Source: an uncultured Acidimicrobiia bacterium (GTDB lineage Bacteria > Actinomycetota > Acidimicrobiia > IMCC26256 > JAENVU01). From it: a stretch of DNA of 64,000 bases. The notes beneath the pieces were generated by a model. The model saw only the letters and a program-made list of their open reading frames with translations, did no database searches and was not told the DNA's origin. Location: the NCBI GenBank assembly GCA_963796755.1, contig CAWCMX010000001.1:1558556-1622555 (forward strand), read 5' to 3'. Positions 7,813 through 64,000 of this stretch are shown here, piece by piece. The position numbers and the translations under genes were made by a program. The stretch's first letter is position 1. Each line of letters begins with the position of its first letter.

Positions 7813-9225
7813 TCACGCGCTCTGCATCCGCTTCCACGCCTCGGTCAGGCAGGTCCGCAGCGTCGTCTCGATGACCTCGAACTCTTCCGGTCCGGCGATC
7901 AGCGGCGGTGACAGCTGCACCACCGGGTCGCCCCGGTCATCGGTGCGGCAGATCAGCCCGGCCTCGTACAGTCGGGGCGCAGAGGAAGCCGCGCAGCAGG
8001 TCCTCGCCCCGCTTCCTTGGTGAAGCGGGCGCGGGTGTCGGGGTCGGCCACGAGCTCGAGCGCGAGGAAGTAACCCGCGCCGCGCACGTCGCCGACGATC
8101 GGCACGTCGCGCAGGCCGTCGATGCGGGACCGGAGCTCGTCCTGGTGGGCCCGGACGTGCGCGAGGATGCCCTCTTCCTCGAACAGCTCGAGGTTGCGCA
8201 GCCCGACCGCGCAGCTCACCGGGTGGCCGCCGAAGGTGATGCCGTGCAGGAAGCTCGCCTTCCCCGAGAGGAACGGTTCGGCGATCGCGTCGCGGCAGAT
8301 GACGGCACCCAGAGGCGAGTAGCCGCTCGTGAGCCCCTTCGCGGTGGTGATGATGTCGGGGAGGTAGTCGTAGCGCTCGCAGCCGAACATGTGACCGAGC
8401 CTTCCGAACGCGCAGATGACCTCGTCCGAGACGAGCAGCACGCCGTACCGGTCGCAGATCTCGCGCACGCGTGTGAAGTAACCCGGGGGCGGGACGAAGC
8501 AGCCGCCCGCGTTCTGCACCGGCTCGAGGTAGAGCGCGGCGACGGTCTCGGGGCCCTCCGCGAGGATCTGCCGCTCGATCGCGTCGGTGGTCAGCTGCAT
8601 GAACGCGGCGTCGTCGCCTTTGAGCTCGTGCCGGAAGCGGTTGGTGTTCATGACGTGCGAGGTGCCCGGGGTCAGGGGCTCGAACGGTGCTTTCAGCGCC
8701 TCGACGCCGGTGATCGCGAGCGCGCCCATCGTCGTCCCGTGGTACGCGGTGTCGCGGGCGATGACCTTGAAGCGGCCCGGCTGGCCGATCGCCTGGAAGT
8801 ACTGGCGGGCCAGCTTCCACGCCGACTCGACCGCCTCCGACCCACCGGTCGTGAAGAAGACCCGGTTGAGGTCGCCGGGCGCGAGCTCGGCGAGCTTCGC
8901 CGCGAGCTCGATCGCGGGCGGGTGCGCGTAGCTCCAGATCGGGAAGTACTCGAGCGTCTCGGCCTGCGCCGCGCGCGGTCTCGGCCAGATCCGCGCGCCC
9001 GTGACCGAGCTGCACGGTGAACAGGCCCGAGAGCGCGTCGAGGTAGCGGTTCCCGCGGGCGTCCCAGAGGTAGCAGCCCTTGCCCTCGGCCATGATCGGG
9101 ATCTCGCCGCCGGTGTACGCGCCGAGCCGGCTGAAGTGCATCCAGAGATGACGCTGCGCCTGCTCGTTGAGCCGGTCGACGTCGTAGGTGTGGCGCGGTC
9201 GGTGGTCCACTATCGGGTACCCCAT
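7813..9225 (-). CDS. Class III PLP omega-amine aminotransferase (polyamine/beta-alanine:pyruvate type; frame slips near 8970 and 8000)
   Basis: HLWMHFS, YLDALSGLF, FFTTGGSEA, EPVQNAGG, SDEVICAFGRLG, TTAKGLTSGY, HGITFGGHP. Confidence 0.9.
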   Translation of the reverse strand: MGYPIVDHRPRHTYDVDRLNEQAQRHLWMHFSRLGAYTGGEIPIMAEGKGCYLWDARGNRYLDALSGLFTVQLGHGRADLAETARGAGRDARVLPDLELRAPARDRARGEARRARARRPQPGLLHDRWVGGGRVGVEAGPPVLPGDRPAGPLQGHRPRHRVPRDDDGRARDHRRRGAESTVRAPDPGHLARHEHQPLPARAQRRRRRVHAADHRRDRAADPRGGPRDRRRALPRAGAERGRLLRPAPGLLHTRARDLRPVRRAARLGRGHLRVRKARSHVRLRALRLPPRHHHHREGAHERLLASGCRHLPRRDRRTVPLGEGELPARHHLRRPPGELRGRAAQPRAVRGRGHPRARPGPPGRAPVPHRRPARRADRRRRARRGLLPRARARGRPRHPRPLHQGSGARTCCAASSAPRLYEAGLICRTDDRGDPVVQLSPPLIAGPEEFEVIETTLRTCLTEAWKRMQSA

Positions 9226-50029: not shown

Positions 50030-50922
50030 CCCGGGCGTTGCGAATCGCCACCCGGGGCAGTGCACTCGCCCGGTGGCAGGCGGAACGGATCGTCGCCCTC
50101 CTCGCGCGACCGGCCGAGCTCGTCGTGGTCTCGACCCTCGGGGATCGTGACAAGGCCTCGACGATCCACGCCCTCGGTGGGACGGGCGTGTTCGTGAAGG
50201 AGGTGCAGGACGCAGTGCTGCGCGGCGACGCGGACGTCGCGGTGCACTCCGCGAAGGACCTCCCGCCGATCGGGCCGGCGGGGCTGAGCTTCGCCGCGGT
50301 GCCGGAGCGGGCCGACCCGCGCGACGCGCTCGTCGGGTCGCGCCTGGACGACCTGCCCACCGGCGCGCGGATCGGGACCGGCAGCGTCCGTCGCCGCGCG
50401 CAGCTCGCGGCGCTGCGACCGGATCTCACGTTCGACGAGCTGCGGGGCAACATCCCGACCCGGTTGGAGCGCGCCGCGAGCTTCGACGCGATCGTCGTCG
50501 CCGCCGCCGCACTCGACCGGCTCGGGATGTCCGAGCGGGTGACCGAACGGCTCGCCCCGTCCACGCTCCTGCCGCAGGTGGGACAGGGCGCGCTCGCGGT
50601 CGAGTGCCGCGAAGACGACGCCGAGGCGCAGCGCGCGCTGGCCGAGATCGACGACGCTGACGCACACGGGGAGATCCGGGCCGAGCGCGCCTTTCTCGCG
50701 CAGCTCGGGGGCGGGTGCAGCCTGCCGTGCGGCGCACTCGCGCGGCGCCAGGCGGACGGGTCGCTCACGCTCGAAGCGCTGTTGGCGTCGCTCGACGGCC
50801 GCATCGTCCTGCGGATCGCGGGCCGAGGGTCCGACCCGGAGGCACTCGGCTTGGAGATCGCCCGCCGGCTGCTCGACGAGCAGGGCGGCCGCAGCATGCT
50901 GGACATGGAGCAGATCGGATGA
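50026..50922 (+). CDS. hemC: Hydroxymethylbilane synthase
   Basis: IATRGSALA, AVHSAKD, RGNIPTRL, GGGCSLP. Confidence 0.95.
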   Translation: MTRALRIATRGSALARWQAERIVALLARPAELVVVSTLGDRDKASTIHALGGTGVFVKEVQDAVLRGDADVAVHSAKDLPPIGPAGLSFAAVPERADPRDALVGSRLDDLPTGARIGTGSVRRRAQLAALRPDLTFDELRGNIPTRLERAASFDAIVVAAAALDRLGMSERVTERLAPSTLLPQVGQGALAVECREDDAEAQRALAEIDDADAHGEIRAERAFLAQLGGGCSLPCGALARRQADGSLTLEALLASLDGRIVLRIAGRGSDPEALGLEIARRLLDEQGGRSMLDMEQIG

Positions 50923-52403
50923 CCGTCTACCTCGTGGGCGCAGGTCCCGGTGATCCGGGGCTGCTGACCCGGCGCGGCGCGGCACTGCTCGAGCAGGCGG
51001 ACGTCGTCGTCTACGACCGGCTCGCTCACCCGTCGCTCGTGGACCTCGCGCCGCGCGCCGCGGAGCGGATCAACGTGGGCAAGGCACCGGGCGCGGTCGA
51101 GATGGACCAGGACGGGATCAACGCGGTGCTCGTCGACCGGGGTGCCGCGGGCAAGACGGTCGTGCGCTTGAAGGGCGGCGATCCGTTCGTCTTCGGCCGC
51201 GGGGGTGAGGAGGCCGAGGCGCTGGCCGCCGCCGGGGTCGCCTTCGAGGTCGTCCCCGGGATCACGAGCGCGATCGCCGCACCGGCGTACGCCGGCATCC
51301 CGGTGACGCACCGCGGGCTCTCGACCCACGTCACGGTGGTGACCGGGCACGAAGACCCCGCGAAGGGCACGACCGACACCGACTGGGCGGCGCTTGCGCG
51401 CGCCGGTGGCACGCTCGTGATCCTGATGGGCGCGGGGCACCTGGCCGACATCGCGGCGCGACTGATCGACGGCGGTCGCCCGCCGGACACGCCGGTGGCC
51501 GCGGTGCGCTGGGGCACCCTGCCGGCGCAACGGACGATCCGCGCGACTCTCGCTACGGTTGCCGACGCGGGCGTGCGGGCGCCGAGCGCGATCGTCGTCG
51601 GCAAGGTGGCGGCGCTCGACCTCGCGTGGTTCGAGTCGCGGCCGCTGTTCGGTCGCACCATCGTGATCACACGGGCGCGAGAGCAGGCCAGCGTGCTGCG
51701 GACGCGACTCGAGCTCCTCGGCGCGGAGGTGGTGGAGCTCCCGACGATCGGCCTCGAGCCGATGGAGTTCGTCCTGCCCGAGCTCGGGAGCTACGCGTGG
51801 TTGGTCCTCACCTCGGCCAACGGGGTCGACGCGTTCTTCGATCGCGGGCTCGCGCCCGCGGGGCTCGACGCCCGGGCGCTCGCGCACCTCGAGGTCGCGG
51901 CGATCGGGCCGGGCACCGCCGGCGCCCTCGCGCGGCGCGGGATCCGCGCCGACCTCGTCCCCGAGCGCTTCGTCGCGGAGTCCCTGCTCGAGGCCTTCCC
52001 CGACCCGGACGTGGCGGGGTCCGAGCCCGCGCGGGTGCTGCTGGCCCGGGCCGAGCAGGCCCGCGACGTGCTCCCCGAAGGACTCGGGGCGAAGGGCTTC
52101 GCGGTGGACGTCCTCGCCGTCTACCGGACCGTGCGCGCGGTGCCCGCGCCCGACGAGCTCGAACGGGTGCAGGCGGGCCGGGTCGACGCGATCACGTTCA
52201 CGTCGTCGTCGACGGTGAGCGGGTTCTGCGATCTCGTGGGCCCGCTGGCGGACCCGCAACCCCGCGTCGTCTCGATCGGTCCGGTGACGTCGCGGAGCGC
52301 GGTCGAGCGTGGGCTGCGCGTGGACTTCGAGGCCGATCCGCACTCGATCGACGGGCTCGTCGAGGCCCTGCTCGGCGCGCTCCGAGCCGATGCCCCGAAC
52401 TAG
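50919..52403 (+). CDS. cobA: Uroporphyrinogen-III methyltransferase/synthase fusion (CobA-HemD)
   Basis: VGAGPGDPGLLT, RLKGGDPFVFGRGGEE; HemD half TSANGV, FTSSSTV, SIGPVT. Confidence 0.93.
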   Translation: MTVYLVGAGPGDPGLLTRRGAALLEQADVVVYDRLAHPSLVDLAPRAAERINVGKAPGAVEMDQDGINAVLVDRGAAGKTVVRLKGGDPFVFGRGGEEAEALAAAGVAFEVVPGITSAIAAPAYAGIPVTHRGLSTHVTVVTGHEDPAKGTTDTDWAALARAGGTLVILMGAGHLADIAARLIDGGRPPDTPVAAVRWGTLPAQRTIRATLATVADAGVRAPSAIVVGKVAALDLAWFESRPLFGRTIVITRAREQASVLRTRLELLGAEVVELPTIGLEPMEFVLPELGSYAWLVLTSANGVDAFFDRGLAPAGLDARALAHLEVAAIGPGTAGALARRGIRADLVPERFVAESLLEAFPDPDVAGSEPARVLLARAEQARDVLPEGLGAKGFAVDVLAVYRTVRAVPAPDELERVQAGRVDAITFTSSSTVSGFCDLVGPLADPQPRVVSIGPVTSRSAVERGLRVDFEADPHSIDGLVEALLGALRADAPN

Positions 52404-52436
52404 GACAAAGCGCAGACCGCAGGTAGCCTTGCGGGC

Positions 52437-53417
52437 ATGGGATTTCCGGAGCACCGGTCGCGGCGCCTGCGTCGAAGCGATCCGCTGCGCCGCCTGACCG
52501 CGGAGACCCGGCTCTCGGTCGACGATCTCGTCGCCCCGCTCTTCGTGAAGGAGGGCATCGACCATCCCGAACCGGTCGCGTCGATGCCGGGCGTCGTGCA
52601 GCACACGCAGGAGAGCCTGCGCAAGGAAGTCCGCGCGCTCGCCGAGCTCGGAGTCCCCGGGGTCATGTTGTTCGGCGTCCCGTTCCGGAAGGACTCGCGC
52701 GGGTCGGGTGCGGATGACCCCAACGGCGTGGTCCAGGTTGCGTTGCGCCACCTCCGTGACGAGGTCGGTGACTCGCTCGTGCTCATGGCGGACACCTGCC
52801 TCGACGAGTACACCGACCACGGGCACTGCGGCCTCCTCGACCGCAATGGCGAGGTCGACAACGACGCGACGCTCGAGCGCTACGCGAGCATCGCGATCGC
52901 GCAGGCCGATGCCGGCGCCGACGTCATCTCGCCGAGCGGGATGATGGACGGGCAGGTCGGCGCGATCCGTGCCGCGCTCGACGGTGCGGGCTACTCGGCC
53001 GCGGCGATCCTCGCGTACTCGGCGAAGTACGCGTCCGCGCTGTACGGACCGTTCCGCGATGCGGCGGAGTGCGCGCCCGCGTTCGGTGACCGTCGCGGCT
53101 ACCAGATGCAGGCGGCCAACGCGCGCGAAGCGATCACCGAGACCGCGTTGGACATCGAGCAGGGCGCGGACATGGTGATGGTGAAGCCCGCGCTGGCATA
53201 CCTCGACGTCATCTCGGCCGTGCGCAACGAGTTCGACGTGCCGGTCGCGGCATACCACGTGAGTGGCGAGTACGCGATGGTGATGGCGGCCGCGGCGAAC
53301 GGCTGGATCGACGGACGGGCGGTGGCGATCGAGCATCTCCTCTCGATCCGCCGGGCCGGCGCCGACTTCGTGCTCACGTACTTCGCCCGGGATGTCGCCG
53401 AGCTGCTCCACGCGTGA
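52437..53417 (+). CDS. hemB: Porphobilinogen synthase
   Basis: CLDEYTDHGHCG, PSGMMDG, YGPFRDA, MVKPA, AYHVSGEY. Confidence 0.96.
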   Translation: MGFPEHRSRRLRRSDPLRRLTAETRLSVDDLVAPLFVKEGIDHPEPVASMPGVVQHTQESLRKEVRALAELGVPGVMLFGVPFRKDSRGSGADDPNGVVQVALRHLRDEVGDSLVLMADTCLDEYTDHGHCGLLDRNGEVDNDATLERYASIAIAQADAGADVISPSGMMDGQVGAIRAALDGAGYSAAAILAYSAKYASALYGPFRDAAECAPAFGDRRGYQMQAANAREAITETALDIEQGADMVMVKPALAYLDVISAVRNEFDVPVAAYHVSGEYAMVMAAAANGWIDGRAVAIEHLLSIRRAGADFVLTYFARDVAELLHA

Positions 53418-53429
53418 CGAGGCGCACAG

Positions 53430-54725
53430 GTGCGTAGCCGCGACGAGCTCTACCGGCGGGCGCTCGCGCGCATCCCCGGTGGCGTCAGCTCCCCCGTGCG
53501 GGCGTTCAACGCGGTCGGCGGCACGCCGTTCTTCGTCGAGCGGGCCGAGGGCGCGTACATCTACGACACCGAGGGCCACCGCTATCTCGACTTCGTGCAG
53601 TCATGGGGTGCGTCGATCCTCGGCCACGCCGACCCCGGCGTCGTCGAGGCGATCCAGCGCGCGGCAACGGCCGGCACCTCGTACGGCGCGCCGACCGAGC
53701 GCGAGGTCGAGCTCGCCGAGCTGATCGCCGAGCGGATGCCGAGCGTGGAAAAGGTGCGCCTCGTCTCGAGCGGGACCGAAGCGACCATGACCGCGGTGCG
53801 GTTGGCCCGCGGCTTCACCGGTCGCAACAAGGTGCTGAAGTTCGCCGGCTGCTACCACGGCCATCTCGACGCGTTGCTGGTCGCCGCGGGGAGCGGTCTC
53901 GCGACGCTCGGGCTCCCGGGGTCGGCGGGCGTCACCCCGGGCGCGGTCGCCGACACGCTCGTGGTGCCCTTCAACGACATCGATGCGCTCGACGCCGCGT
54001 TCGCGGCGAACGGCGCCGACATCGCAGGCGCGCTGGTCGAGCCGGTCGCCGCCAACATGGGTCTGGTCCCTCCCGATCCGGGCTTCCTCGAGCACCTCGC
54101 CCAGCGCTGTGCCGAGCACGGCGCGCTGTTCGTCTGTGACGAGGTGATCACCGGGTTCCGGATCGGACCCGGCGGGGCACAGGGTCGCTTCGGCCTGCGC
54201 CCGGACCTCACGATCCTCGGCAAGGTCATCGGTGGCGGCCTTCCGCTGGCCGCGGTCGGGGGCCGGGCGGAGGTCATGGACCATCTCGCGCCCCTCGGCG
54301 ACGTGTACCAGGCGGGCACCCTCTCGGGGAACCCGCTCGCCACCGCGGCCGGGCTCGCGGCGCTGCACGCGCTCGAACCCGCCGACTACGAGACGCTCGA
54401 GCGCCGGGTCACCGGGTTCACGACCGCGTTGCACGATGCGATCGCGGGCACTGGTCTCGACGTGCAGGTCCCGCGCGCCGCGACGCTGGCCGGCCTGTTC
54501 TTCGCGTCGAGCCCGGTCCGGAGCTACGCAGACGCGAAGGCCGGCGACCACGCGGCGTACGCGCACTTCTTCCACGCCATGCTCGACCGCGGGGTGTTCC
54601 TCGCGCCGAGCAGCTACGAGGTGATGTTCGTGAGCCTCGCGCACACCGACGACGAGCTCGCGCGGACCGTCGTGCTCGCGACCGAGGCCGCCGGAGACGT
54701 GTCGCGCGCGCTCACACAGGCCTAG
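53430..54725 (+). CDS. hemL: Glutamate-1-semialdehyde 2,1-aminomutase
   Basis: PGGVSSPVRAF, SGTEAT, GCYHGH, DEVITGFR, YQAGTLSGNP. Confidence 0.96.
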   Translation: MRSRDELYRRALARIPGGVSSPVRAFNAVGGTPFFVERAEGAYIYDTEGHRYLDFVQSWGASILGHADPGVVEAIQRAATAGTSYGAPTEREVELAELIAERMPSVEKVRLVSSGTEATMTAVRLARGFTGRNKVLKFAGCYHGHLDALLVAAGSGLATLGLPGSAGVTPGAVADTLVVPFNDIDALDAAFAANGADIAGALVEPVAANMGLVPPDPGFLEHLAQRCAEHGALFVCDEVITGFRIGPGGAQGRFGLRPDLTILGKVIGGGLPLAAVGGRAEVMDHLAPLGDVYQAGTLSGNPLATAAGLAALHALEPADYETLERRVTGFTTALHDAIAGTGLDVQVPRAATLAGLFFASSPVRSYADAKAGDHAAYAHFFHAMLDRGVFLAPSSYEVMFVSLAHTDDELARTVVLATEAAGDVSRALTQA

Positions 54726-54742
54726 GCGATCGAGGCGCACCG

Positions 54743-55669
54743 GTGACCCGTCCGTTCCGCTTCGGAGTCTCCCTGGCCGACGCGCGCGACCGGGCGGCGT
54801 GGCGGGAGCAGGCCCGCACTGCGGAAGCGCTGGGCTACGACGTGCTCCTGGTCGCGGATCACCTGACCGACTCGCTCGCCCCGGTGCCGGCACTCATGGC
54901 CGCCGCCGACGCGACGACCACGCTGCGGGTGGGGTCGTTCGTGCTCGCGAACGACTTCCGTCACCCGGCCCTGGTGGCCCGGGAGGCGGCGACCGTGGAC
55001 CTGCTCACGGACGGCCGCTTCGAGCTCGGGCTCGGGGCCGGCCACATGCGCTGGGAGTACGACGAGGTGGGAATCCCCTTCGTCCCGGCCGGGGATCGGG
55101 TGGGCCGCCTCGAGGAGTCCGTCCAGGTCGTGCGGGCCCTCCTCGACGGCGAGCCGGTCGAGTTCTCCGGTGAGCACTACGAGATCTCGGGTCACCGGTC
55201 GTACCCGCCCCGCCCGCACGTGCCGCTGCTGATCGGCGGGAACGGCAACCGGGTGCTCGCCCTCGCGGGCCGCCACGCCGACATCGTCAGCTTCGTGGGG
55301 TTCCATCAGGTCGACGGCAGCGCGGATGTCGCGCTGAGCCACTTCCGCGCTGCGGGCCTCGAGGATCGGCTGGCGGTCGTGCGCGCCGCGGCCGGCGATC
55401 GGTTCGGCGACCTCGAGCTGAACGTCCTCGTCCAGTCGGTGACGGTGACCGAAGACCGCGCCGGCGCGGCCGACGAGCTGAGCCGCCGGGTCGCCGAGCT
55501 CTCACCCGAGGATGCCGCCGAGTCGCCGTTCCTGCTGCTCGGCACCCACGACGAGATCGAGCAGGACCTGCTCGATCGACGCGACCGCTTCGGGATCTCC
55601 TACGTCGTGGTCTTCGGTCCGGCGATGGAAGCGCTCGCTCCCGTCGTGGACCGTCTGCGCGGCCGCTGA
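54743..55669 (+). CDS. F420-dependent LLM class oxidoreductase (TIGR03621-like)
   Basis: RPFRFGV, VADHL, NDFRHPALVAREAAT, GRFELGLGAG. Confidence 0.88.
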   Translation: MTRPFRFGVSLADARDRAAWREQARTAEALGYDVLLVADHLTDSLAPVPALMAAADATTTLRVGSFVLANDFRHPALVAREAATVDLLTDGRFELGLGAGHMRWEYDEVGIPFVPAGDRVGRLEESVQVVRALLDGEPVEFSGEHYEISGHRSYPPRPHVPLLIGGNGNRVLALAGRHADIVSFVGFHQVDGSADVALSHFRAAGLEDRLAVVRAAAGDRFGDLELNVLVQSVTVTEDRAGAADELSRRVAELSPEDAAESPFLLLGTHDEIEQDLLDRRDRFGISYVVVFGPAMEALAPVVDRLRGR

Positions 55670-55688: not shown

Positions 55689-55913
55689 TCACTCGTCGGG
55701 CGTGCGGCGCTTCCGGACGCGGTCCATGTAGAAGATCGCGGCGATGAAGATCCAGAAGAAGACCGCGAGCAGCACGAACGCGAGGCCACCGGCGCCGTTG
55801 TCACCACCCGCGTCGACGAGCTGACCGTTCGTGCAACCGCTGGCGAGCACGACGAGCATCGCCAGCGCGGCGATGCGGGTGGCGCGCATCCAGGATCCGG
55901 GGGTGCGGGTCAT
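55689..55913 (-). CDS. Small lipoprotein-like/TM accessory protein, last gene of the Rieske/cyt b operon
   Basis: LASG-C lipobox, then one TM and a basic tail. Confidence 0.65.
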   Translation of the reverse strand: MTRTPGSWMRATRIAALAMLVVLASGCTNGQLVDAGGDNGAGGLAFVLLAVFFWIFIAAIFYMDRVRKRRTPDE

Positions 55914-55922
55914 CCGAGGCTC

Positions 55923-56813
55923 CTAGACCTTCTCTGGGATGCGTTCGACGTCGGTGCCGGCCTTGGCGTCCGCCTCGGCCTGCGCGGCGGCGGCCTGCTC
56001 CTGCAGGTCCCGCTCCCGCCAGTGCAGGCTGAGCAGCGAGAGCGTGAACAGGATCGCCGACGCGCACAGCGCCACGAACGGCGGCACCCGCACCGAGCCG
56101 AGGTCACGCTCGAACACGAGCGTGTTGATGGGCTTCGACGCGTCGCACTTCGGGGTCGGCGGCGGGTCGCCGAACGGAACGATCTGCGCCTCCTGGTCGA
56201 TCGGGCAGATGTTCACGACCGCGTAGTGCGGCTTGTGCAGGCTGATGTGGACCAGCGGGAACTGGCCGTTGACGTCGAAGGTCTTCTGGCTGAAGAGGTT
56301 CCCGCCCCCGACCTCGTAGTAGGTCGGCACGAGGTAGTCCGTCGACTCGGTGTAGAGCGTGTACTTGTTGCCCGCGGCCACGGCGGTGGACCCCGGCGTG
56401 CCGGCGGGGGTCACGACGACCTGGTCGACCGTTGCCTTCACGTTCGACTGCTCGGTCGGGTCTGTGACCTCGTCGGCCTTGGTGATGGCGCGCACCGCCG
56501 GGATCTTCGACTTGGAGAGATCCCCGCCCTTGATCGACTCCACGGCCTTCCAGGTCGGGACGCGTCCCTTGAGGGTGTTGAGCGGCGACGCGGTGGTGAG
56601 CCAGAGGCACGAGAGCAGCACCATGAAGCCGGAGAGCCCGGCCGCCGCGACGAGGAAGCCGAGGCGCGCGCCGAGGTTCGTGGCCAGCAGCAGGTAGACG
56701 CTGCCGCAGAACAGGCTCACGCCCGCCACCACCACGAGCACCCCGAGGATGGTCGGGTACCAGAGGTCGCGGTTCGGGATCCCCGCCTCCGCGGCCAGGA
56801 CGAAGAGTCTCAC
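55923..56813 (-). CDS. Hypothetical three-TM protein with extracytoplasmic domain
   Basis: FCGSVYLLLATNLGARLGFL, Cys pair (NICP...PKCD), RDLGSVRVPP. Confidence 0.8.
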   Translation of the reverse strand: MRLFVLAAEAGIPNRDLWYPTILGVLVVVAGVSLFCGSVYLLLATNLGARLGFLVAAAGLSGFMVLLSCLWLTTASPLNTLKGRVPTWKAVESIKGGDLSKSKIPAVRAITKADEVTDPTEQSNVKATVDQVVVTPAGTPGSTAVAAGNKYTLYTESTDYLVPTYYEVGGGNLFSQKTFDVNGQFPLVHISLHKPHYAVVNICPIDQEAQIVPFGDPPPTPKCDASKPINTLVFERDLGSVRVPPFVALCASAILFTLSLLSLHWRERDLQEQAAAAQAEADAKAGTDVERIPEKV

Positions 56814-56826
56814 GCGTGCTCCCCCA

Positions 56827-58092
56827 CTAGAGGTTCCGCTCGTACTTGATGATCGCGTCGATCTGTTCTTTCGACAGGATGTTCCCGAAGTGCGCCATGC
56901 CGCCGCTCGAGATGCCGCGCACGCCGTAGCCCTTCTCCGCCACCGCGCCGTTCGCGACCCAGTCGTACTGCTTCTCGAAGCCCGGCGTGCTGGTGTCGTC
57001 CGCCGGCAGCCCCGGGAACTGCTCGAGGACCGCCCCGCCGCGCAGCGACGGACCGAACGCCCCGCTGCCCGCCGGTGACGGGGGCGGCACGGTCGGCTTG
57101 GCGGGGTCGTTGTAGGACCAGCCCTTGGTGTGGCAGCGGGCGCAGTTGACGTCGAAGAGCAGCTCGCCCTGGCCGGCGCTCGCGATCTGGGTCTCGAACG
57201 CCTTCGAGTTCACGATCGCCTGCTGGGCGGCGGTGATGATCAGCTCGGCGGCCTCGCGGCCTTTGGGCGTCTCGGCGAGCGGGAGCGCCTTCTGCGCGGT
57301 CGCGAGGTTGGCCTCGGCGTCGGCGACTGCGGTCTTGGCCTGGAGCTTCAGCGCGGCCACGTTCTGGAGGACCTGGGCCTTGGCCTTGGCCGGCGAGAGC
57401 TGGATGCTCTTGAGGTAGGCGACGATGTCGCTGATCGCCTGGTCGTTCTTCGGCCCGCCGCCCTCGATGCCCCAGGCGGGCATCGGGGTGCCGGCTCTCC
57501 CGTAGGTGATGATCTGGGTGACCTGTTGCTCGGTCCGGATGCAGTTCGGGGCCTTGGCGGCGACCTCTTCGTCGGTGCAGTCGTTGAACCGGTACATCAC
57601 CGTGTTGAGCGCCGGCGCCTTCCAGGTGACCGAGACCGGTCGCGCCTTCAGGTCACCGATCGCGTCGGGGGTGATCGTGTAGACGGCCGACCCGCCCCCG
57701 GCGTCCGTGCCGTGGCAGTCCGCGCAGAGCAGCGACTTCGTCGGGTCGTACGCGGGCATCTGCGCGTTGGCGAACAGCGTCGCGCCGCGCGCGACGGCCC
57801 GTTCGTCGAATCCCTGCGCCTCGGCCGTCTGCCGGCCGGGCTCGAGCACCCAGTACACCGGCAGGACGATGGCGATGATGGTGGAGAAGAGCAGCGTCCA
57901 GCGGAGCACGCGCTCGAGGTGCTGGCCTTCGAGCGTCTCGTCGTCCAGGAACGGCGTGAGGTTCTGGGCCGGCTTCTCCTTGGGGACGCGCCGGACGCTG
58001 AACACCTTGTACCCGATGACCACTGCGATCACCGCGACCGCGGCGACGTTGATGATCACGAGAATGGTGCGGAAGGTCAGGGCCAGGATCAC
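56827..58092 (-). CDS. Membrane-anchored di-heme c-type cytochrome
   Basis: CADCH with TPMPAWG; CARCH with GGMAHFG; two N-terminal TMs. Confidence 0.92.
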   Translation of the reverse strand: MILALTFRTILVIINVAAVAVIAVVIGYKVFSVRRVPKEKPAQNLTPFLDDETLEGQHLERVLRWTLLFSTIIAIVLPVYWVLEPGRQTAEAQGFDERAVARGATLFANAQMPAYDPTKSLLCADCHGTDAGGGSAVYTITPDAIGDLKARPVSVTWKAPALNTVMYRFNDCTDEEVAAKAPNCIRTEQQVTQIITYGRAGTPMPAWGIEGGGPKNDQAISDIVAYLKSIQLSPAKAKAQVLQNVAALKLQAKTAVADAEANLATAQKALPLAETPKGREAAELIITAAQQAIVNSKAFETQIASAGQGELLFDVNCARCHTKGWSYNDPAKPTVPPPSPAGSGAFGPSLRGGAVLEQFPGLPADDTSTPGFEKQYDWVANGAVAEKGYGVRGISSGGMAHFGNILSKEQIDAIIKYERNL

Positions 58093-58138
58093 GGTTTCCT
58101 CTTCGGCTCTGTGAGGGCGGGAGCGGGACGGGTCCGGG

Positions 58139-59012
58139 TCACCCGACGCAGAACGGGCCTTCGGCGCCCTGTCCGGTCGTGTCGGTGCCGATGGGCGGGC
58201 CGGTGACGGGCAGACCCGAGGTGTCGATCACGACCTTCTGGCCGCTGATGCTGACGACCCAGTGGTCGAGGCCGCGGGGGGCCGGGCCACCCCGCTTCTC
58301 ACCGACGCGGTTGTACTTCGAGCCGTGGCAGGGGCACTCGAACCATTGCGACTGCTGGCACCAGGGCACCCGGCAGCCGAGGTGGACGCACTTCTGGTAC
58401 AGCGCCACCATGCCGAGCTCCATGCCGGGCAGCACCTTCTGGTACTGCGCGATCTTCGCGGCCTTCTTGACGTCGGCCTTCGGGTACGGCTGCAGGTAGG
58501 TCCGGGCCTCGGGCACGTAGAACGGCGCCTTCTTGCTCGCCCAGTACGCCTCGATGTCGGAGAGCGCGGCGCCGGCGTCGATGCGGCCACCGAAGCCGCC
58601 GGCCGACGAGGCGTACAGGAAGCTGATCGCCGCGGCGCCGAACGCCCCGAGGCTGAGGGCCATCGTGATGAGGATCCCCCGGTTGAAGAACTGGCGGCGG
58701 CTGATCCCGAGCTCTTCCTCGTCGACGGGGGGCCGCTCCATGACCGCGGTGGAGCCCCGCGTCGCGGGGGCGGCGCCGCCCGAGCCGATGGCCTTGCGGG
58801 TGTCATCGGCGCGCTCGCGCGCTTCGCTGGACTCGTCGTCGGCCTCGCCCGGCGGCGCCGACGCTCTGGTCGGTCTGGCGGGTCTCCGCGCTGAGGGTCC
58901 CGGTGACCCGCCCCTCGGGGTCCGAGGCGGCCCGCTTGCGACCGGTGGCGATGATCATCACGGCGGCCAGGATGAGCAGGACCGGGATGGCGATGATGAG
59001 GGCGGTGGACAC
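58139..59012 (-). CDS. Rieske 2Fe-2S subunit (frame slip near 58850)
   Basis: ISRRQFF Tat motif, CVHLGC and CPCHGSKY boxes, GPAPRGL; extra N-terminal TM. Confidence 0.93.
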
Positions 59013-59024
59013 GGAAGTCTGCTC

Positions 59025-59865
59025 CTACAGCTCGAAGAAGATGCCGTCGTTCCAGGGGAACACGAAGTTGAAGCCCGGCCCCCGGAAGAACGACCCGATG
59101 ATGACGAGCACGGCCCAGAACATGAGGAAGATCGTGAAGATCGAGATCACGAACTTCCGGTCCTCGGGCTTGTTCGACGGGTTCTTGTCGATGTACGGAG
59201 CCACGATCAGCAAGAAGATGCCCATGCCCGGGATGGTCACGCCCGCGACCATCGGGTGGAACATCGTGAGGAGCTCCTGCAGACCGAGGAAGTACCACGG
59301 AGCCTTCGACGGGTTCGGCGTCTGGTTGACGTCGGCGAGGCCGAGGAGCGGGGCGCGCACGATCGCCGAGAAGATGAGGAGGACCGCGGTCATCGCGAGG
59401 ATCGCCGCGAACTCGACGACGAGCAGGTGCGGCCAGGTGTGGACCTTGTCCTGGGCCTCGGCGCGGGTCTGCTGAATCGAGCCGGACTTCACGACGGTCA
59501 GCAGCCGCTGGGTGTGGCCGCCCGGGCCGGTCATCGTCGGGACCGGCGCCGCCTTGACCGCGGTCGCGGTGGCGGTACCGCCGGCTGCCGCGGCCGCCGG
59601 TGCGCCGGCGTCGCCCGACAGCGCCGCCTTCCGGCGCCGGGACCGCTCGAGGAGGTGGGCGGGGACGCCACCCTTGTCCTCGGTGACCGCGTCGGCGTCA
59701 GCACTCGCGGCTGCGGCCGGAGCGGCCTGCCTCGGCCGGGGCTTCCGCTTCGCCGCCTTCGGGCGCGGCGGCCTCGGCCGCTTCGCCTTCCTCGCCGGTC
59801 GGCAGGCCGAGCTGCTTGCGCCGCTCGGCGCTGCGCTTCAGCAGGTGTTCGGGGATCTCGGGCAT
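59025..59865 (-). CDS. Cytochrome b6f subunit IV-like protein with N-terminal extension (frame slip near 59725)
   Basis: HTWPHLL, TPNPSKAPWYFLGLQELL, APYID; N-terminus MPEIPEHLLKRS. Confidence 0.88.
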
Positions 59866-59881
59866 CGAAGTCGTCCTCCCC

Positions 59882-60685
59882 CTACAACGGCCCGGAGAGG
59901 CCGCCGTCCTTGCGGACTCGCCAGAAGTGGACTGCCATGAAGATCACGATCACGAAGGGCAGCAGCAGGACGTGCAGCGTGTACCACCGCAGCAGCGTGT
60001 CGCCGCTGATCTCCTTCGAACCGAGCAGTGCGTACCGGATCTGGCCACCGAACACCGGCGTGTAGCCCATCATGTTCGTGCCGACGGTCACGGCCCAGAG
60101 CGCCAGCTGGTCCCACGGCAGCAGGTAGCCGGTGAACGAGAGCAGCAGGGTGAGCGTGAGCAGGATCACGCCGATGACCCAGTTGAACTCACGCGGTGCC
60201 TTGTAGGCCCCGTGGTAGAAGACGCGGCTCATGTGCAGGAACACGGTGAGCACCATGAGGTGCGCGCCCCAGCGGTGCATGTTGCGCACCAGCGAGCCGA
60301 ACCACACCGCGGTCTCGAGCTGCTGCACGTTCGCCCACGCGAGCGCTTCGGTCGGGCGGTAGAAGAACATCAGGAAGATGCCCGTGACGGTGAGCAGGAT
60401 GAACAGGAAGAAGCTCAACCCACCCAGGCAGAGCGTGTAGCTCACCTTCACCGCGTGCCGCTTCACCTTCACCGGGTGCAGGTGGTACAGCACGTTGTTC
60501 ATGATCACGTACGAGCGGTTCCGGGGGCTGTCGGTGTAGCCCTTCCGGAAGATGGAGCCGGGCCGGAAGATCGAGGTCATGACCTGCGAGTTGCCGACGG
60601 TGTCACCGACCTTCTTGCCGCGCTCGCGCAGCTTGACGCCGATGCCTCCGTGCCCGTTTCCGTTGCTCCCGTTGCCGTTGGCCAC
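59882..60685 (-). CDS. Cytochrome b6-like short cytochrome b
   Basis: YTLCLGG, HRWGAHLMVLTVFLH, FTGYLLPWDQ, LHVLLLP...VHFW, C-terminal GLSGPL. Confidence 0.93.
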   Translation of the reverse strand: MANGNGSNGNGHGGIGVKLRERGKKVGDTVGNSQVMTSIFRPGSIFRKGYTDSPRNRSYVIMNNVLYHLHPVKVKRHAVKVSYTLCLGGLSFFLFILLTVTGIFLMFFYRPTEALAWANVQQLETAVWFGSLVRNMHRWGAHLMVLTVFLHMSRVFYHGAYKAPREFNWVIGVILLTLTLLLSFTGYLLPWDQLALWAVTVGTNMMGYTPVFGGQIRYALLGSKEISGDTLLRWYTLHVLLLPFVIVIFMAVHFWRVRKDGGLSGPL

Positions 60686-60760
60686 GAGCGCTCTCTCCTT
60701 GGTGTGCGCGTGATGGGCTTCGCGTTGCTGGTGTCCGGCCGCGAGCCGGACCGGGTGTTG

Positions 60761-61174
60761 CTAGAACCGAACGCCGTATGCGTAGCCGTTGCGGTTGGTG
60801 CGGGTGTGCGGGTCGCCGGCTGCGACCTGCGGAGCGAGCTTGCCGAGGATGATCACGCCGGTCGGGCACCGGTCGACGCAGAGTGCGCACCGCGTGCACA
60901 CGTCCTCGTCCACGATGAACGCGACATGGTCGTGCGGGTCCTCCCCCGGTTGTTCGGTGCCGACGGCCTCGTCGATGGCCGAGACCGACACCATGTGGAT
61001 GCACTTCCAGGGGCAGATGTCGACGCAGCCCTCGCACAGGATGCACTCGGCCTGGTCGATGTGGAGGAATTGCTTCGGCTTGACCGCCTGGGTGAGGAAG
61101 CTCGGGTCCACCTCCTGGAGGAGGTAGTCCGTCGCGAAGTCGGGCATCGGCGGGTTGGCATCGTTTCTCGCCAT
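60761..61174 (-). CDS. 2x[4Fe-4S] ferredoxin
   Basis: CILCEGCVDICP and CTRCALCVDRCP. Confidence 0.93.
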   Translation of the reverse strand: MARNDANPPMPDFATDYLLQEVDPSFLTQAVKPKQFLHIDQAECILCEGCVDICPWKCIHMVSVSAIDEAVGTEQPGEDPHDHVAFIVDEDVCTRCALCVDRCPTGVIILGKLAPQVAAGDPHTRTNRNGYAYGVRF

Positions 61175-61178
61175 GTCC

Positions 61179-61674
61179 CTAGACCTTCGCCTTCAGTGGT
61201 CGACCGAACCGCGAACGACCGACGACCGCCGGCTTCTCTTCGCTGCTCCTCGGTCTTGGTCTTGCGGTCCTGCCACTTGACGATGATCGCGATCTCGCCC
61301 GCGAAGAACACGAGGTAGATGCCGACGACGATGAGGTCGCGCAAGGACTGCAGGTTGATGCTCGTCGGCCAGTTCCAGCTGTGCATGAACGGGATCTGGG
61401 TCGTCGACTTGATCAGGTACTTGTCCGTCGACCACTGCAGGTACTTGTCGGAGAAGGTGATGTACTCGTGCGGGATGATCGTGTAGCCGAGCAGCATCAG
61501 GCCGAACGTGTAGAAGGCGCCGAACATCGCCTGGGCCCAGGTCGTGGGCTGCTCCTGCTTCGGGCGGCGGAGCATCACGATCACCGGGATCAGCAGGATG
61601 ATGAAGATGATCGAGAACCAGATCAACCGGCCCGCCGGCCGGAGAAAGTGCCAGTCAGGTAGCAGCTGGGGCAT
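61179..61674 (-). CDS. Hypothetical three-TM protein, first gene of the Rieske/cyt b operon (3' frame slip)
   Basis: TWAQAM, YTIIPHEYITFSDKYLQW, LRDLI, reconstructed end SRFGRPLKAKV. Confidence 0.75.
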
Positions 61675-61840: not shown

Positions 61841-63134
61841 ATGCTGGCCATGGAAAGCGCACGCTACGACGCGTTGGTCGTGGGAGCCGGACCGGCCGGT
61901 GCATCGGCCGCCTTCTGGCTCGCGCAGCACGGTCACTCGGTGCTCGTGGTGGACAAGAAGCGCTTCCCGCGCGAGAAGACCTGCGGCGACGGTCTGACGC
62001 CGCGGGCGGTCCGCCAGCTCGACGACATGGGCCTCGCGTCCGGCGCTCGAGGGGTTCCAGCGCTACGAGGGCCTCCGGTCGATGGCCCACGGCGTCACCC
62101 TCGAGCTGCGTTGGCCGCGGCACCCCGACTTCCCCGACCACGGGTACGTGGTCCGGCGCCGGGACCTGGACGAGATGGTCGCGGACCGGGCGGTCAAGGC
62201 CGGCGCCACCCTCTGGCCGGCGAGCGAGGCGGTCGCCCCGCTGGTGGAGGGCGGGCTGGTCACCGGGGCGACGATCCGCCGGGCCGAGAGCGGGGTCACG
62301 GAGACGGTCCGGGCCCGGGTGGTCGTCGTCGCCGACGGTGCGAATTCCCGGTTCGGGCGGGCCCTCGGGACCCAGCGGGACCGGTCGTACCCGATGGGCA
62401 TGGCGATTCGCGGCTATTTCACCAGTCCGTACCACGACGAGCCGTGGATCGAGAGCCACCTGGACCTGCGGGACCGGGATGGGAACTACATGCCCGGATA
62501 TGGGTGGATCTTTCCGGTTGGTGACGGGACGATCAACGTGGGGGTCGGCCTCCTGGACACCTACACCGGGTTCAAGGCCGTCAACACCACCAAATTGATG
62601 GACGCCTTCATCGCCACCGCGCCGGCCCGCTGGGGCATCTCGCCGGAGACGTCCTGCGGTCCCCCGACCGGCGGCAAGCTGCCCACGGGCGGATCCGTGA
62701 CCCCGAAGGCAGGCCCCACCTGGATCGTCGCCGGCGACGCCGCCGGGTCGATCAACCCGTTCAACGGCGAGGGCATCGCCTACGCGTACGAGACCGGCCG
62801 GATGGTCGCCGACGCGGTCCACGAGACCCTGGTGACCGGCGACGGCCTGGCGCTCGCCCGCTACCCGGACCAGCTCGACGCCCGCTACGGCGAGTACTTC
62901 AAGGTGGCGCGCACGTTCGTGAAGGTGATCGGCAACCCGGCGGTCATGCGCGAGCTGACCCGGGTCGGGATGCAGTCCCACACGCTCATGGAGTGGGTGC
63001 TGCGGATCATGGCGAACCTGCTGCGCCCCGACGAGATCGGCCCGGCCGAGGCGGCGTACAAGGTGGTCGAGCGGCTCGTCGCGGTCATGCCCGACCCGTC
63101 CCCGGTCGGGCTCGGTGCCGCGCGGCGTTCGTAG
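61841..63134 (+). CDS. menJ: Geranylgeranyl/menaquinone reductase (MenJ-like; frame slip near 62045)
   Basis: VVGAGPAG, FPREKTCGDGLTPRAV, GYGWIFP, GDAAGSINPFNGEGIAYA; upstream of nuoA. Confidence 0.82.
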
Positions 63135-63242
63135 GGCTCCGGGCGCGCCGCGGTCGCGATCCCGAGAACTTGGGGGCGGCCGGTTCCCGCGAGGTAGCCT
63201 CGCCCCGAACTGTCCGGACGTGTCGACGAAGGGGAGCGAGCG

Positions 63243-63708
63243 GTGGCGCAGTACCTGCCGATCCTCACAATGATCGTGCTGGTCATGATCTTCGTGGCGG
63301 CGTCGTTCTTCGCCTCGAAGCTGCTGACGAACAAGCGCCCGACGAAGGCGAAGACCGCCTCCTATGAGTGCGGCATCGTCTCCGGAGCAGGAGCCCGTCG
63401 AGCGCTTCCCCGTGCGCTTCTACCTCGTCGCGCTGACGTTCATCGTCCTCGACGTCGAGATCATCTTCCTCTACCCGTTCACCACGATCTTCCGCACGCT
63501 CGGCGGCTACGGCCTCGCGCTGATGGGTACGTTCCTGCTCATCCTGATCGTGCCGTTCGCGTACCTGCTCTCCGTCGGCGCGCTCGACTGGGGACCGGTG
63601 CGTCAGGTCGCAGGTCGCGTCGCCGGTCCGATCCTTCGCACGACGGCCGTGCCGACCGGGATCCCGGCCGATGACGACCTGGACGCGAGCGAAGACGAGG
63701 CCGCGTAG
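63243..63708 (+). CDS. nuoA: NADH-quinone oxidoreductase subunit A (frame slip near 63382)
   Basis: YECGI, RFPVRFYLVA, LDVEIIFLYP, GALDW. Confidence 0.92.
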
Positions 63709-64000
63709 ATGCCGCTCGACGCGATCCCGCACAACTTCGCGACGGGCCGGCTCGAGGACCTCGTGAAGTGGGCCCGACGCAACTCGGTGTTCCCCGCGAC
63801 GTTCGGGCTCGCGTGCTGCGCGATCGAGATGATGGCCACCGGTGCCGCGCACTACGACATGGCGCGCTTCGGCATGGAGGTCTTCCGGGCCAGCCCGCGC
63901 CAGGCCGACCTCATGATCGTCGCCGGCCGGGTGAGCCAGAAGATGGCGCCGGTGCTCCGCCAGGTCTACGACCAGATGGTCGAGCCCAAGTGGGTCATCT
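63709..64000 (+). CDS. nuoB: NADH-quinone oxidoreductase subunit B (runs off the window)
   Basis: Read from ATG at 63709: [35 protein letters not shown]. Confidence 0.95.

Follow-up and report, generated by a model that had tools for sequence, protein, structure and literature searches.

Split cytochromes b, encoded as a short b6-type subunit and a separate subunit IV, have been described as an "APWY clade" by Kao and Hunte in 2014, and the accessible text of that report lists five actinobacterial pairs, one of them from an Ilumatobacter strain (PMC4122944). This clade would correspond roughly to subfamily G of Dibrova et al., for which, as for anammox bacteria, an arrangement with a flavoprotein beside cytochrome b is in print (PMC5600118). 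It has been reported that the Rieske/cytochrome b complexes of Kuenenia contain a putative cytoplasmic NAD(P) oxidoreductase (PMC12954380; PMC5600118). AlphaFold3 models made by the Kuenenia authors show a path from haems bN/cN over iron-sulfur (FeS) clusters to flavin adenine dinucleotide (FAD), and bifurcation-driven NAD(P)H production was proposed for these complexes (PMC12954380). In this study, we analysed an operon of eight genes at 55689-61674 in a 64,000-nucleotide stretch of DNA (the window) from an uncultured Acidimicrobiia bacterium (assembly GCA_963796755.1, contig CAWCMX010000001.1). We found that the operon joins the genes of a b6-type Rieske/cytochrome b complex to a gene for a stand-alone ferredoxin with two [4Fe-4S] cluster motifs, and that this combination is widespread in Actinomycetota.

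All eight genes are co-directional on the minus strand, and their coding frames have a G+C content at third codon positions (GC3) above 0.9. As the genome is ~70% G+C, this value picks out the true frames sharply. Families were assigned to the products of the window with Pfam and NCBIfam. A sequence-only reading of the window made before this analysis had listed the same eight genes; its list and coordinates were correct, and three of its gene models (protein A, subunit IV and the Rieske protein) were corrected for frameshifts. It had proposed a quinol-oxidising complex distinct from QcrCAB, which was borne out: the NCBIfam models for QcrB, QcrA and QcrC scored 110.9, 19.8 and 23.1 bits on the operon, all below their cut-offs of 500, 275 and 200. 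It had named cyanobacteria, heliobacteria and Bacillus as the holders of split cytochrome b; its occurrence in Actinobacteria is already in print, as is the APWY/CxGG clade (PMC4122944).

Cytochrome b is divided into a four-helix b6-type protein (PF00033) and a separate subunit IV open reading frame (ORF; PF00032). In the b6-type subunit, H135/H149 and H236/H251 were invariant among 50 orthologues, with a spacing that we take to be b6-type. C84, G86 and G87 of its CLGG motif, which reads LCLGG in the window, were also invariant in this set, and the cysteine of the CxGG motif was found in all loci of the two samples described below (80/80 and 20/20). This cysteine probably marks a covalently bound haem cN. 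The mean column identity of the subunit was 83%, and its cytoplasmic N-terminal extension was near-invariant. The nearest solved sequences in the PDB were plant and cyanobacterial cytochromes b6 (178 bits), with nothing closer. The Qo motif of subunit IV is APWY; all 73 of the 80 loci that gave a subunit IV match have it. Subunit IV begins with a cytoplasmic extension of ~115 aa that holds two PxHLLxRS motifs and a near-invariant stretch. The two copies are parted by an Ala/Glu/Pro-rich linker (window 59534-59865; 7814-8160 in the related locus L005), P5, H7, L8 and R11 of the first copy were invariant in the 50 orthologues, and the twin motif occurred nowhere else in the six frames of the genome.

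The Rieske protein has an extra N-terminal transmembrane (TM) helix, which a cytoplasmic linker joins to a twin-arginine-like anchor helix, and it scored 68 bits, below the cut-off, with the PetC-like NCBIfam models. Of the 72 Acidimicrobiia loci in which a Rieske protein was detected, 69 have Ser-x-Tyr after its box II and two more have Ser-x-Phe there. The c-type subunit has two CxxCH motifs and matched PF13442 and PF00034 instead of cytochrome f, and none of the PetG, PetL, PetM and PetN families of Pfam and NCBIfam matched any of the eight products. By its motifs, the core appears to belong to the APWY clade. A second, intact Rieske gene of 292 aa lies elsewhere in the genome (C5:223915-224784). 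Its product is 86% identical to that of L005, and the gene stands alone among unrelated ORFs; it could be a paralogue for the same complex.

The ferredoxin has two CxxCxxCxxxCP motifs, and the eight cluster cysteines were invariant among the 50 orthologues. Its mean column identity was 79%, close to that of the b6-type subunit and far above those of the membrane proteins A (40%) and G (26%) encoded in the same operon, and its N- and C-terminal extensions were conserved too. Neither a signal peptide nor a TM or hydrophobic segment is visible in its sequence. Pfam found only Fer4 domains in its 137 aa and no FAD or NAD(P) domain. Five apparent fusions of a ferredoxin with a b6-type cytochrome from protein databases were examined. 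Four of them (P0005, P0027, P0037 and P0041) hold stretches that look out of frame, and the only clean in-frame one, P0030 (407 aa, on a 2.7-kb JGI contig), was treated as a lead; as most appeared to be frameshift artefacts, the fusions were dropped as "Rosetta stone" evidence.

Among longer relatives of the ferredoxin, a search turned up GltD-like NAD(P) oxidoreductases (~600 aa) that match it in their C-terminal domain. Homology to the C-terminal domain of one of them, P0081, was detected with hhalign (99.3%, E 1.8e-20), with 52% identity over 69 columns. We fetched 80 metagenome loci of such enzymes, 38 of which have at least 1200 nt downstream. A b6-type cytochrome gene, its product 44-55% identical to that of the window, lay directly downstream of the GltD-like gene in 33 of these 38 loci, followed by genes for subunit IV, a Rieske protein and a cytochrome c; the five loci without it held the most distant GltD-like enzymes. 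Judged by homology and gene order, the ferredoxin gene holds the operon position that is taken in the sister operons by a flavoprotein with a homologous ferredoxin domain. In a tree made by a quick method, rooted on a very long QcrB branch and used only for the grouping of the 32 ferredoxin-linked cytochromes, these grouped together with a Shimodaira-Hasegawa-like approximate likelihood ratio (SH-aLRT) value of 97. Six GltD-linked cytochromes adjoined this group (98) and thirteen were placed further out. Because the root branch is very long, no direction of evolution was drawn from this tree.

The genome itself holds three Rieske/cytochrome b systems: the operon of the window, a canonical qcrCAB and a second b6-type cluster. 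The search for qcrCAB that the sequence-only reading had suggested found a separate locus (C5:549154-552138) next to ctaE (together C5:549154-552711), with ctaD nearby and a QcrB that scored 671.5 bits against the cut-off of 500. The second b6-type cluster (C5:401977-405914) comprises genes for a GltD-like protein, a cytochrome b6-like protein, subunit IV, a Rieske protein and a cytochrome c. Its GltD-like gene lies in four reading-frame pieces, and the product, 53-59% identical to P0081, carries a ferredoxin domain at its C-terminus. Its cytochrome b6-like gene is without the CxGG cysteine, and a cupredoxin-like ORF lies just upstream.

We then examined the conservation of the operon. When genomes, one for each species, were scanned with the b6-type subunit, at least 583 relatives were recovered; the analysis continued with the 80 best loci. 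They are mostly titled as Acidimicrobiia groups (Ilumatobacteraceae, Microthrix), others as Actinomycetota or Actinomycetes, and three (L044, L052, L080) carry other taxon labels. With tblastn, the ferredoxin was detected in 78 of these loci, A in 74, subunit IV in 73, the Rieske protein in 72, cytochrome c in 68, G in 66 and H in 19, and the gene order was constant throughout. The ferredoxin gene lay directly upstream of the b6-type gene in 78 of the 80. In the other two, from Ilumatobacteraceae metagenome-assembled genomes (L032 and L076), the b6-type protein was 82-84% identical to that of the window, and neither a ferredoxin nor a match to the other operon genes was detected; in L032 (7001-7741) the neighbours are unrelated, so this is a lone copy of the gene. 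Spacing was tight: across 74 loci in relatives, the median distance was 3 nt from the stop of A to the start of the ferredoxin gene, which suggests coupled expression, and 23 nt from the ferredoxin stop to the b6-type start. The ferredoxin and the membrane proteins A and G are therefore conserved together with cytochrome b, contrary to the loss of this linkage in relatives that the sequence-only reading had named as a refuting outcome. Of the three unassigned membrane proteins that the sequence-only reading had put forward as new subunits, A and G remain candidates, and H is confined to close relatives.

The distribution was then surveyed across Actinomycetota. With a hidden Markov model (HMM) of the ferredoxin, matches at E <=1e-15 were obtained in 157 of 401 genomes of the phylum (13 of the 157 are flagged unpublished). 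Of 30 other genomes in the class, 28 matched, as did most members of several coded families outside it (25/26, 17/21, 17/19, 18/21 and 21/22), and there were no matches in three large Actinomycetota families (0/31, 0/13 and 0/28). A wider-phylum sample of 20 regions from 15 coded families, 17 of the regions from outside the class, showed the ferredoxin gene directly upstream of the b6-type gene in 20/20, with the b6-type proteins 62-75% identical to that of the window. In 16 of these regions genes for subunit IV, the Rieske protein and cytochrome c came next, and the remaining four contigs stop before that point; 14 of the 20 regions gave a match to G and 8 to A.

To compare this complex with the canonical one, we counted both in a sample of 121 genomes of the class, 120 of them at least 90% complete, with QcrB counted above its curated cut-off. 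The ferredoxin was present in 109 of the 121 genomes and QcrB in 19. The ferredoxin alone was found in 96 genomes, both in 13, QcrB alone in 6 and neither in 6. All 12 genomes of one genus with ~1 Mb genomes had the ferredoxin, and haem-copper oxidase subunit I was present in all five ferredoxin-only genomes tested. From these counts, the complex encoded by the operon is the usual, and mostly the sole detected, Rieske/cytochrome b complex of Acidimicrobiia. It is thus no peculiarity of one actinobacterium, the setting in which the first reading had described it, being predominant in the class and widespread in the phylum.

We propose that the operon encodes a b6c-type complex in which the b6-type subunit would carry haems bP and bN and probably the covalent cN, together with subunit IV, the Rieske protein and the dihaem cytochrome c. 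Such a complex would act as a Q-cycle-type menaquinol:cytochrome c oxidoreductase that stands in for QcrCAB in the majority of Acidimicrobiia and in many Actinomycetota families outside the class; menaquinone is the quinone that these bacteria presumably use. The ferredoxin would most likely be a bound subunit on the cytoplasmic (n) side, wiring the bN/cN haem pair to the cytoplasm, and its site of electron exchange, predicted from homology and a weak complex prediction, is the Qi/haem ci site. Electrons from low-potential cytoplasmic donors could pass over the ferredoxin to the quinone-reduction site, which would give a built-in ferredoxin:menaquinone route. Entry and exit of electrons through the ferredoxin are close to even, and we slightly favour entry because an efficient Q cycle must be kept in a complex that is mostly the only one of its kind in the cell. 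Physical binding of the ferredoxin to the complex is somewhat more likely than not. For the whole, a b6c-type respiratory complex with a bound n-side ferredoxin through which electrons preferably enter, we lean somewhat towards acceptance. A further-reaching version remains tentative: that a permanently bound two-cluster ferredoxin, held in place by A and G with their unmatched folds, is standard on the respiratory b6 complex of much of Actinomycetota and couples the quinone cycle to the low-potential pool.

Several points weigh against this proposal. Binding was modelled in one complex-prediction job of the b6-type subunit, subunit IV and A with the ferredoxin as partner, each with a 50-row alignment. 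The prediction supported binding weakly, with a score of 0.33 (runs 0.33, 0.02 and 0.35, the second of these counting against it); the best of three controls was 0.00. The runs agreed in at least 29% of contacts, and the ferredoxin had a predicted local distance difference test (pLDDT) value of at least 55. Of 80 solved complexes, 58 reached the mark used for such predictions, as did 2 of 110 mismatched pairs; at scores of <=0.60 it was reached by only 7 of these solved complexes and by both mismatches. No ferredoxin-cytochrome b6 fusion was found in 74 Acidimicrobiia loci. The subunit IV profile found no PetD in the PDB at E 0.001, and only one bc1 cytochrome b (E 2.4e-4). The four GltD-linked cytochromes examined have APWY but are without the CxGG cysteine, so the analogy with them is incomplete. 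Three operon genes (A, subunit IV and Rieske) are out of frame in this assembly, and the distribution was surveyed within Actinomycetota. The accessible text on the APWY clade states that none of its members is characterised in vitro or in vivo (PMC4122944), and we found no experiment on any member of the present complex in the literature.

The electrons might instead flow in the opposite direction. Bifurcation at Qo would then send the high-potential electron over the Rieske protein and cytochrome c to the oxidase, and the low-potential electron over bP, bN/cN and the two 4Fe-4S clusters to a cytoplasmic acceptor. This scheme fits the homology between the ferredoxin and the C-terminal domain of the NAD(P) oxidoreductases whose genes lie beside sister b6-type genes, and bifurcation to NAD(P)H is what has been proposed in print for the Kuenenia complexes (PMC12954380). 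The Ser-x-Tyr after Rieske box II in 69 of 72 loci, here a feature of the sequence only, also agrees with it, as the Ser/Tyr pair is tied in the cited papers to a high potential, and non-standard or reverse operation is discussed in the available text on APWY complexes (PMC4122944). However, in 96 of the 121 class genomes no other Rieske/cytochrome b complex was detected, and routine diversion of electrons would forfeit Q-cycle yield in aerobes. Moreover, the ferredoxin has no FAD/NAD(P) domain and no acceptor was identified. We regard this reading as a whole as rather unlikely, though it deserves to be kept in view.

The proteins encoded with the core may also be something other than stable subunits. 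The ferredoxin, A, G and H could be maturation factors, for haem cN attachment or FeS insertion, or, in the case of the ferredoxin, a co-transcribed soluble carrier. None of A, G and H belongs to a Pfam or NCBIfam family. AlphaFold2 models of A (pLDDT 87) and G (pLDDT 85; predicted template modelling score 0.71) each show three long helices, and in G two N-terminal helices, a beta-rich domain, which is probably extracytoplasmic, and a C-terminal helix follow one another. Against PDB sequence profiles A and G gave rows at chance level only (E 1.4 and 4.1), Foldseek found no fold match in the PDB (best E 0.51 for G and 3.3 for A), and in the ESM Atlas both reached unannotated Actinomycetota clusters only. 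H has a lipobox-like ASGC followed by one hydrophobic helix. The want of a recognisable family or fold for A and G, the weak complex prediction and the poor conservation of H all agree with such roles. No mode of haem cN attachment outside oxygenic phototrophs is known to have been described, which counts on the same side. The ferredoxin, however, is very strongly conserved, its non-cluster extensions included, and a homologous domain occurs in oxidoreductases encoded at the same operon position. Oxidoreductase subunits are, moreover, reported within the Kuenenia complexes (PMC5600118). Taken together, these observations make maturation or carrier roles quite improbable for the set as a whole, and we consider A and G to be candidate lineage-specific membrane subunits or assembly factors of the b6c-type complex with its bound ferredoxin.

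Since three genes are broken in this assembly, the operon could also be decaying in this organism, with real frameshifts and respiration through the canonical QcrCAB. The closest relatives L005, L006 and L007, whose b6-type proteins are 97, 91 and 88% identical to that of the window, carry intact A, subunit IV and Rieske genes and were used as references. In A, one extra base near 61246 hides the natural stop at 61179-61181, and the ORF as read extends to 60853, overlapping the ferredoxin gene; in L005, A is 164 aa long and stops just ahead of the ferredoxin start, and its SRFGRP tail is conserved in all three relatives. Subunit IV truly starts at 59865 (~284 aa in L005), and its frameshift lies within 59704-59753, with a net change of -11 nt against L005; its first part appears in the window as a stray 55-aa ORF at 59698-59865. 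The Rieske gene truly starts at 59012 (~292 aa in L005), with 5 nt missing against L005 near 58844, and its first part is a stray 69-aa ORF at 58803-59012. These three frame-breaking indels, the canonical qcrCAB-ctaE locus and the intact second long Rieske copy are what decay would predict. By contrast, GC3 remains above 0.9 on both sides of each break. In addition, contigs (94-98% alike) from three metagenome runs extend across these places, and their lengths there bring the genes back into frame: at the Rieske break they are shorter by one letter (58584-59123, 58386-59313 and 58621-59276), at the subunit IV break longer by two (59568-60097) and at the A break shorter by one (61112-61446). 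Of the read runs searched, none contained half or more of the words of the source DNA and the best contained 0.36, so the contigs are not taken as the source organism's own.

The assembly as a whole appears indel-rich: it consists of 6 contigs at 74% completeness, and other conserved genes (ctaD, the second cytochrome b6, and the GltD-like gene, in four pieces) are split as well. On these grounds the three frameshifts are very probably consensus errors of the assembly, and decay is a far-fetched reading. Contigs of one RNA library, X15, matched parts of the b6-type subunit, the ferredoxin and subunit IV at >=90%; they were not counted as evidence, since such contigs do not show that the operon of this organism is transcribed.

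Least credible of all is a module of the Ext type, comparable to ExtOPQ of Geobacter, that would serve periplasmic or extracellular reductions instead of an oxidase, since the b6-type subunit exceeds the NCBIfam NF040969 ExtP cut-off (304.8 against 290 bits) but ExtQ scores 56.5 bits against 150, the operon is without the multihaem cytochromes, porin or rhodanese of the ext cluster, and the accessible text on that cluster describes no ferredoxin (PMC5877670). Ext identity was rejected on the ExtQ score and on the absence of multihaem cytochrome and porin genes from the operon. As the ExtP cut-off is passed without ext context, automatic annotation is likely to misname the b6-type subunit, possibly as the selenite/tellurite-reduction protein ExtP.

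Table 1. Genes of the operon in the window, with coordinates corrected for frameshifts where these apply.
Product	Position	Strand	Description
Protein A	61179-61674	-	~164 aa, 3-helix membrane protein, no known family
2x[4Fe-4S] ferredoxin	60761-61174	-	137 aa; Fer4 families, E down to 6e-11
Cytochrome b6-type subunit	59882-60685	-	267 aa; PF00033, 1.8e-46
Subunit IV	59025-59865 (ORF as read 59025-59534)	-	PF00032, 6.5e-9
Rieske [2Fe-2S] protein	58139-59012 (ORF as read 58139-58741)	-	PF00355, 6.6e-8
Membrane-anchored dihaem cytochrome c	56827-58092	-	421 aa; PF13442 and PF00034, two stretches each
Protein G	55923-56813	-	296 aa, no known family
Protein H	55689-55913	-	74 aa, lipobox-like signal, GC3 0.91, no family

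On one flank of the operon (50715-55669) lie hemD/methylase and hemB (ALAD) genes, a class-III aminotransferase gene in the hemL position and a gene for a luciferase-like monooxygenase. The other flank (62082-63999) is divergent; it encodes a flavoprotein that resembles geranylgeranyl reductase, and a nuo operon begins there (nuoB by a NuoB match, nuoA by position only). The haem-synthesis, geranylgeranyl-reductase-like and nuoB neighbours were counted in favour of a respiratory complex with a bound ferredoxin.

The cytochrome b family and the attachment of cytoplasmic FeS oxidoreductases to such complexes are already known (PMC5600118, PMC12954380). In the literature covered, we did not find the stand-alone ferredoxin form, which the gene-neighbourhood figures in the closed supplements of two papers may show (PMC5600118, PMC4122944). 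Nor did we find there the associated proteins A and G, or any statement that Acidimicrobiia and many other Actinomycetota have this as their standard Rieske/cytochrome b complex. Searches of PDB sequences and folds and of the literature found no characterised complex that matches in all subunits. These results change the textbook picture of QcrCAB as the rule in this phylum: in the class sample of 121 genomes, 96 have the ferredoxin complex and no canonical QcrB. Electron exchange between a ferredoxin and haems bN/cN is a long-standing question of photosynthesis, has also been proposed for anammox, and becomes testable here. With a strongly conserved ferredoxin gene inside the operon and aerobic hosts that include cultured representatives, purification, cryo-electron microscopy, electron paramagnetic resonance and activity assays are feasible. 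If the proposal holds, the complex would act as the ferredoxin:quinone reductase long postulated for b6f cyclic flow, or else would produce reduced ferredoxin in aerobes by quinol-driven bifurcation.

Compared with the APWY clade, the operon shares a split cytochrome b6 and subunit IV, the APWY Qo motif and the CxGG motif, and it differs in that the typical motif of the clade is WCMGG whereas LCLGG is found here (PMC4122944). The text of the papers on this clade describes neither a stand-alone ferredoxin gene nor A, G and H (PMC4122944, PMC5600118). The Kuenenia complexes (Kuste4569-4574 and Kustd1480-1485) likewise have a b6-like cytochrome b and a subunit IV, with a cytoplasmic FeS partner proposed at bN/cN (PMC12954380). 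By their description, and not by a comparison of sequences, they are set apart from the present complex, in which the partner is a two-cluster ferredoxin of 137 aa that lacks an FAD/NAD(P) domain; their cytochrome c is hexa- or octahaem, whereas it is dihaem here, and, unlike the Kuenenia case, hosts of the ferredoxin operon include genomes with haem-copper oxidase genes (PMC12954380). The likeness to Geobacter ExtOPQ is confined to the b6-type subunit, which passes the ExtP equivalog cut-off, as the ExtKLMNS cytochromes, the ExtI porin and the rhodanese of the ext cluster have no counterpart in the operon (PMC5877670). The QcrCAB of the bcc-aa3 system shares a dihaem cytochrome c with the present complex and presumably also its task, electron transfer from menaquinol over cytochrome c to the oxidase, but the present complex has a ferredoxin and a cytochrome b that is short and split. 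The two complexes mostly replace each other in the class sample, and both occur in this genome. With the cyanobacterial and chloroplast b6f complex, the operon shares the split b6 and subunit IV and the CxGG cysteine, and the solved cytochromes b6 are the nearest to its own. It differs from b6f in having a dihaem cytochrome c in place of cytochrome f, no recognised PetG/L/M/N, the APWY Qo motif and a ferredoxin encoded in the operon. The route from ferredoxin to haem cN in b6f has long been debated, and it is the functional analogue of the present case.

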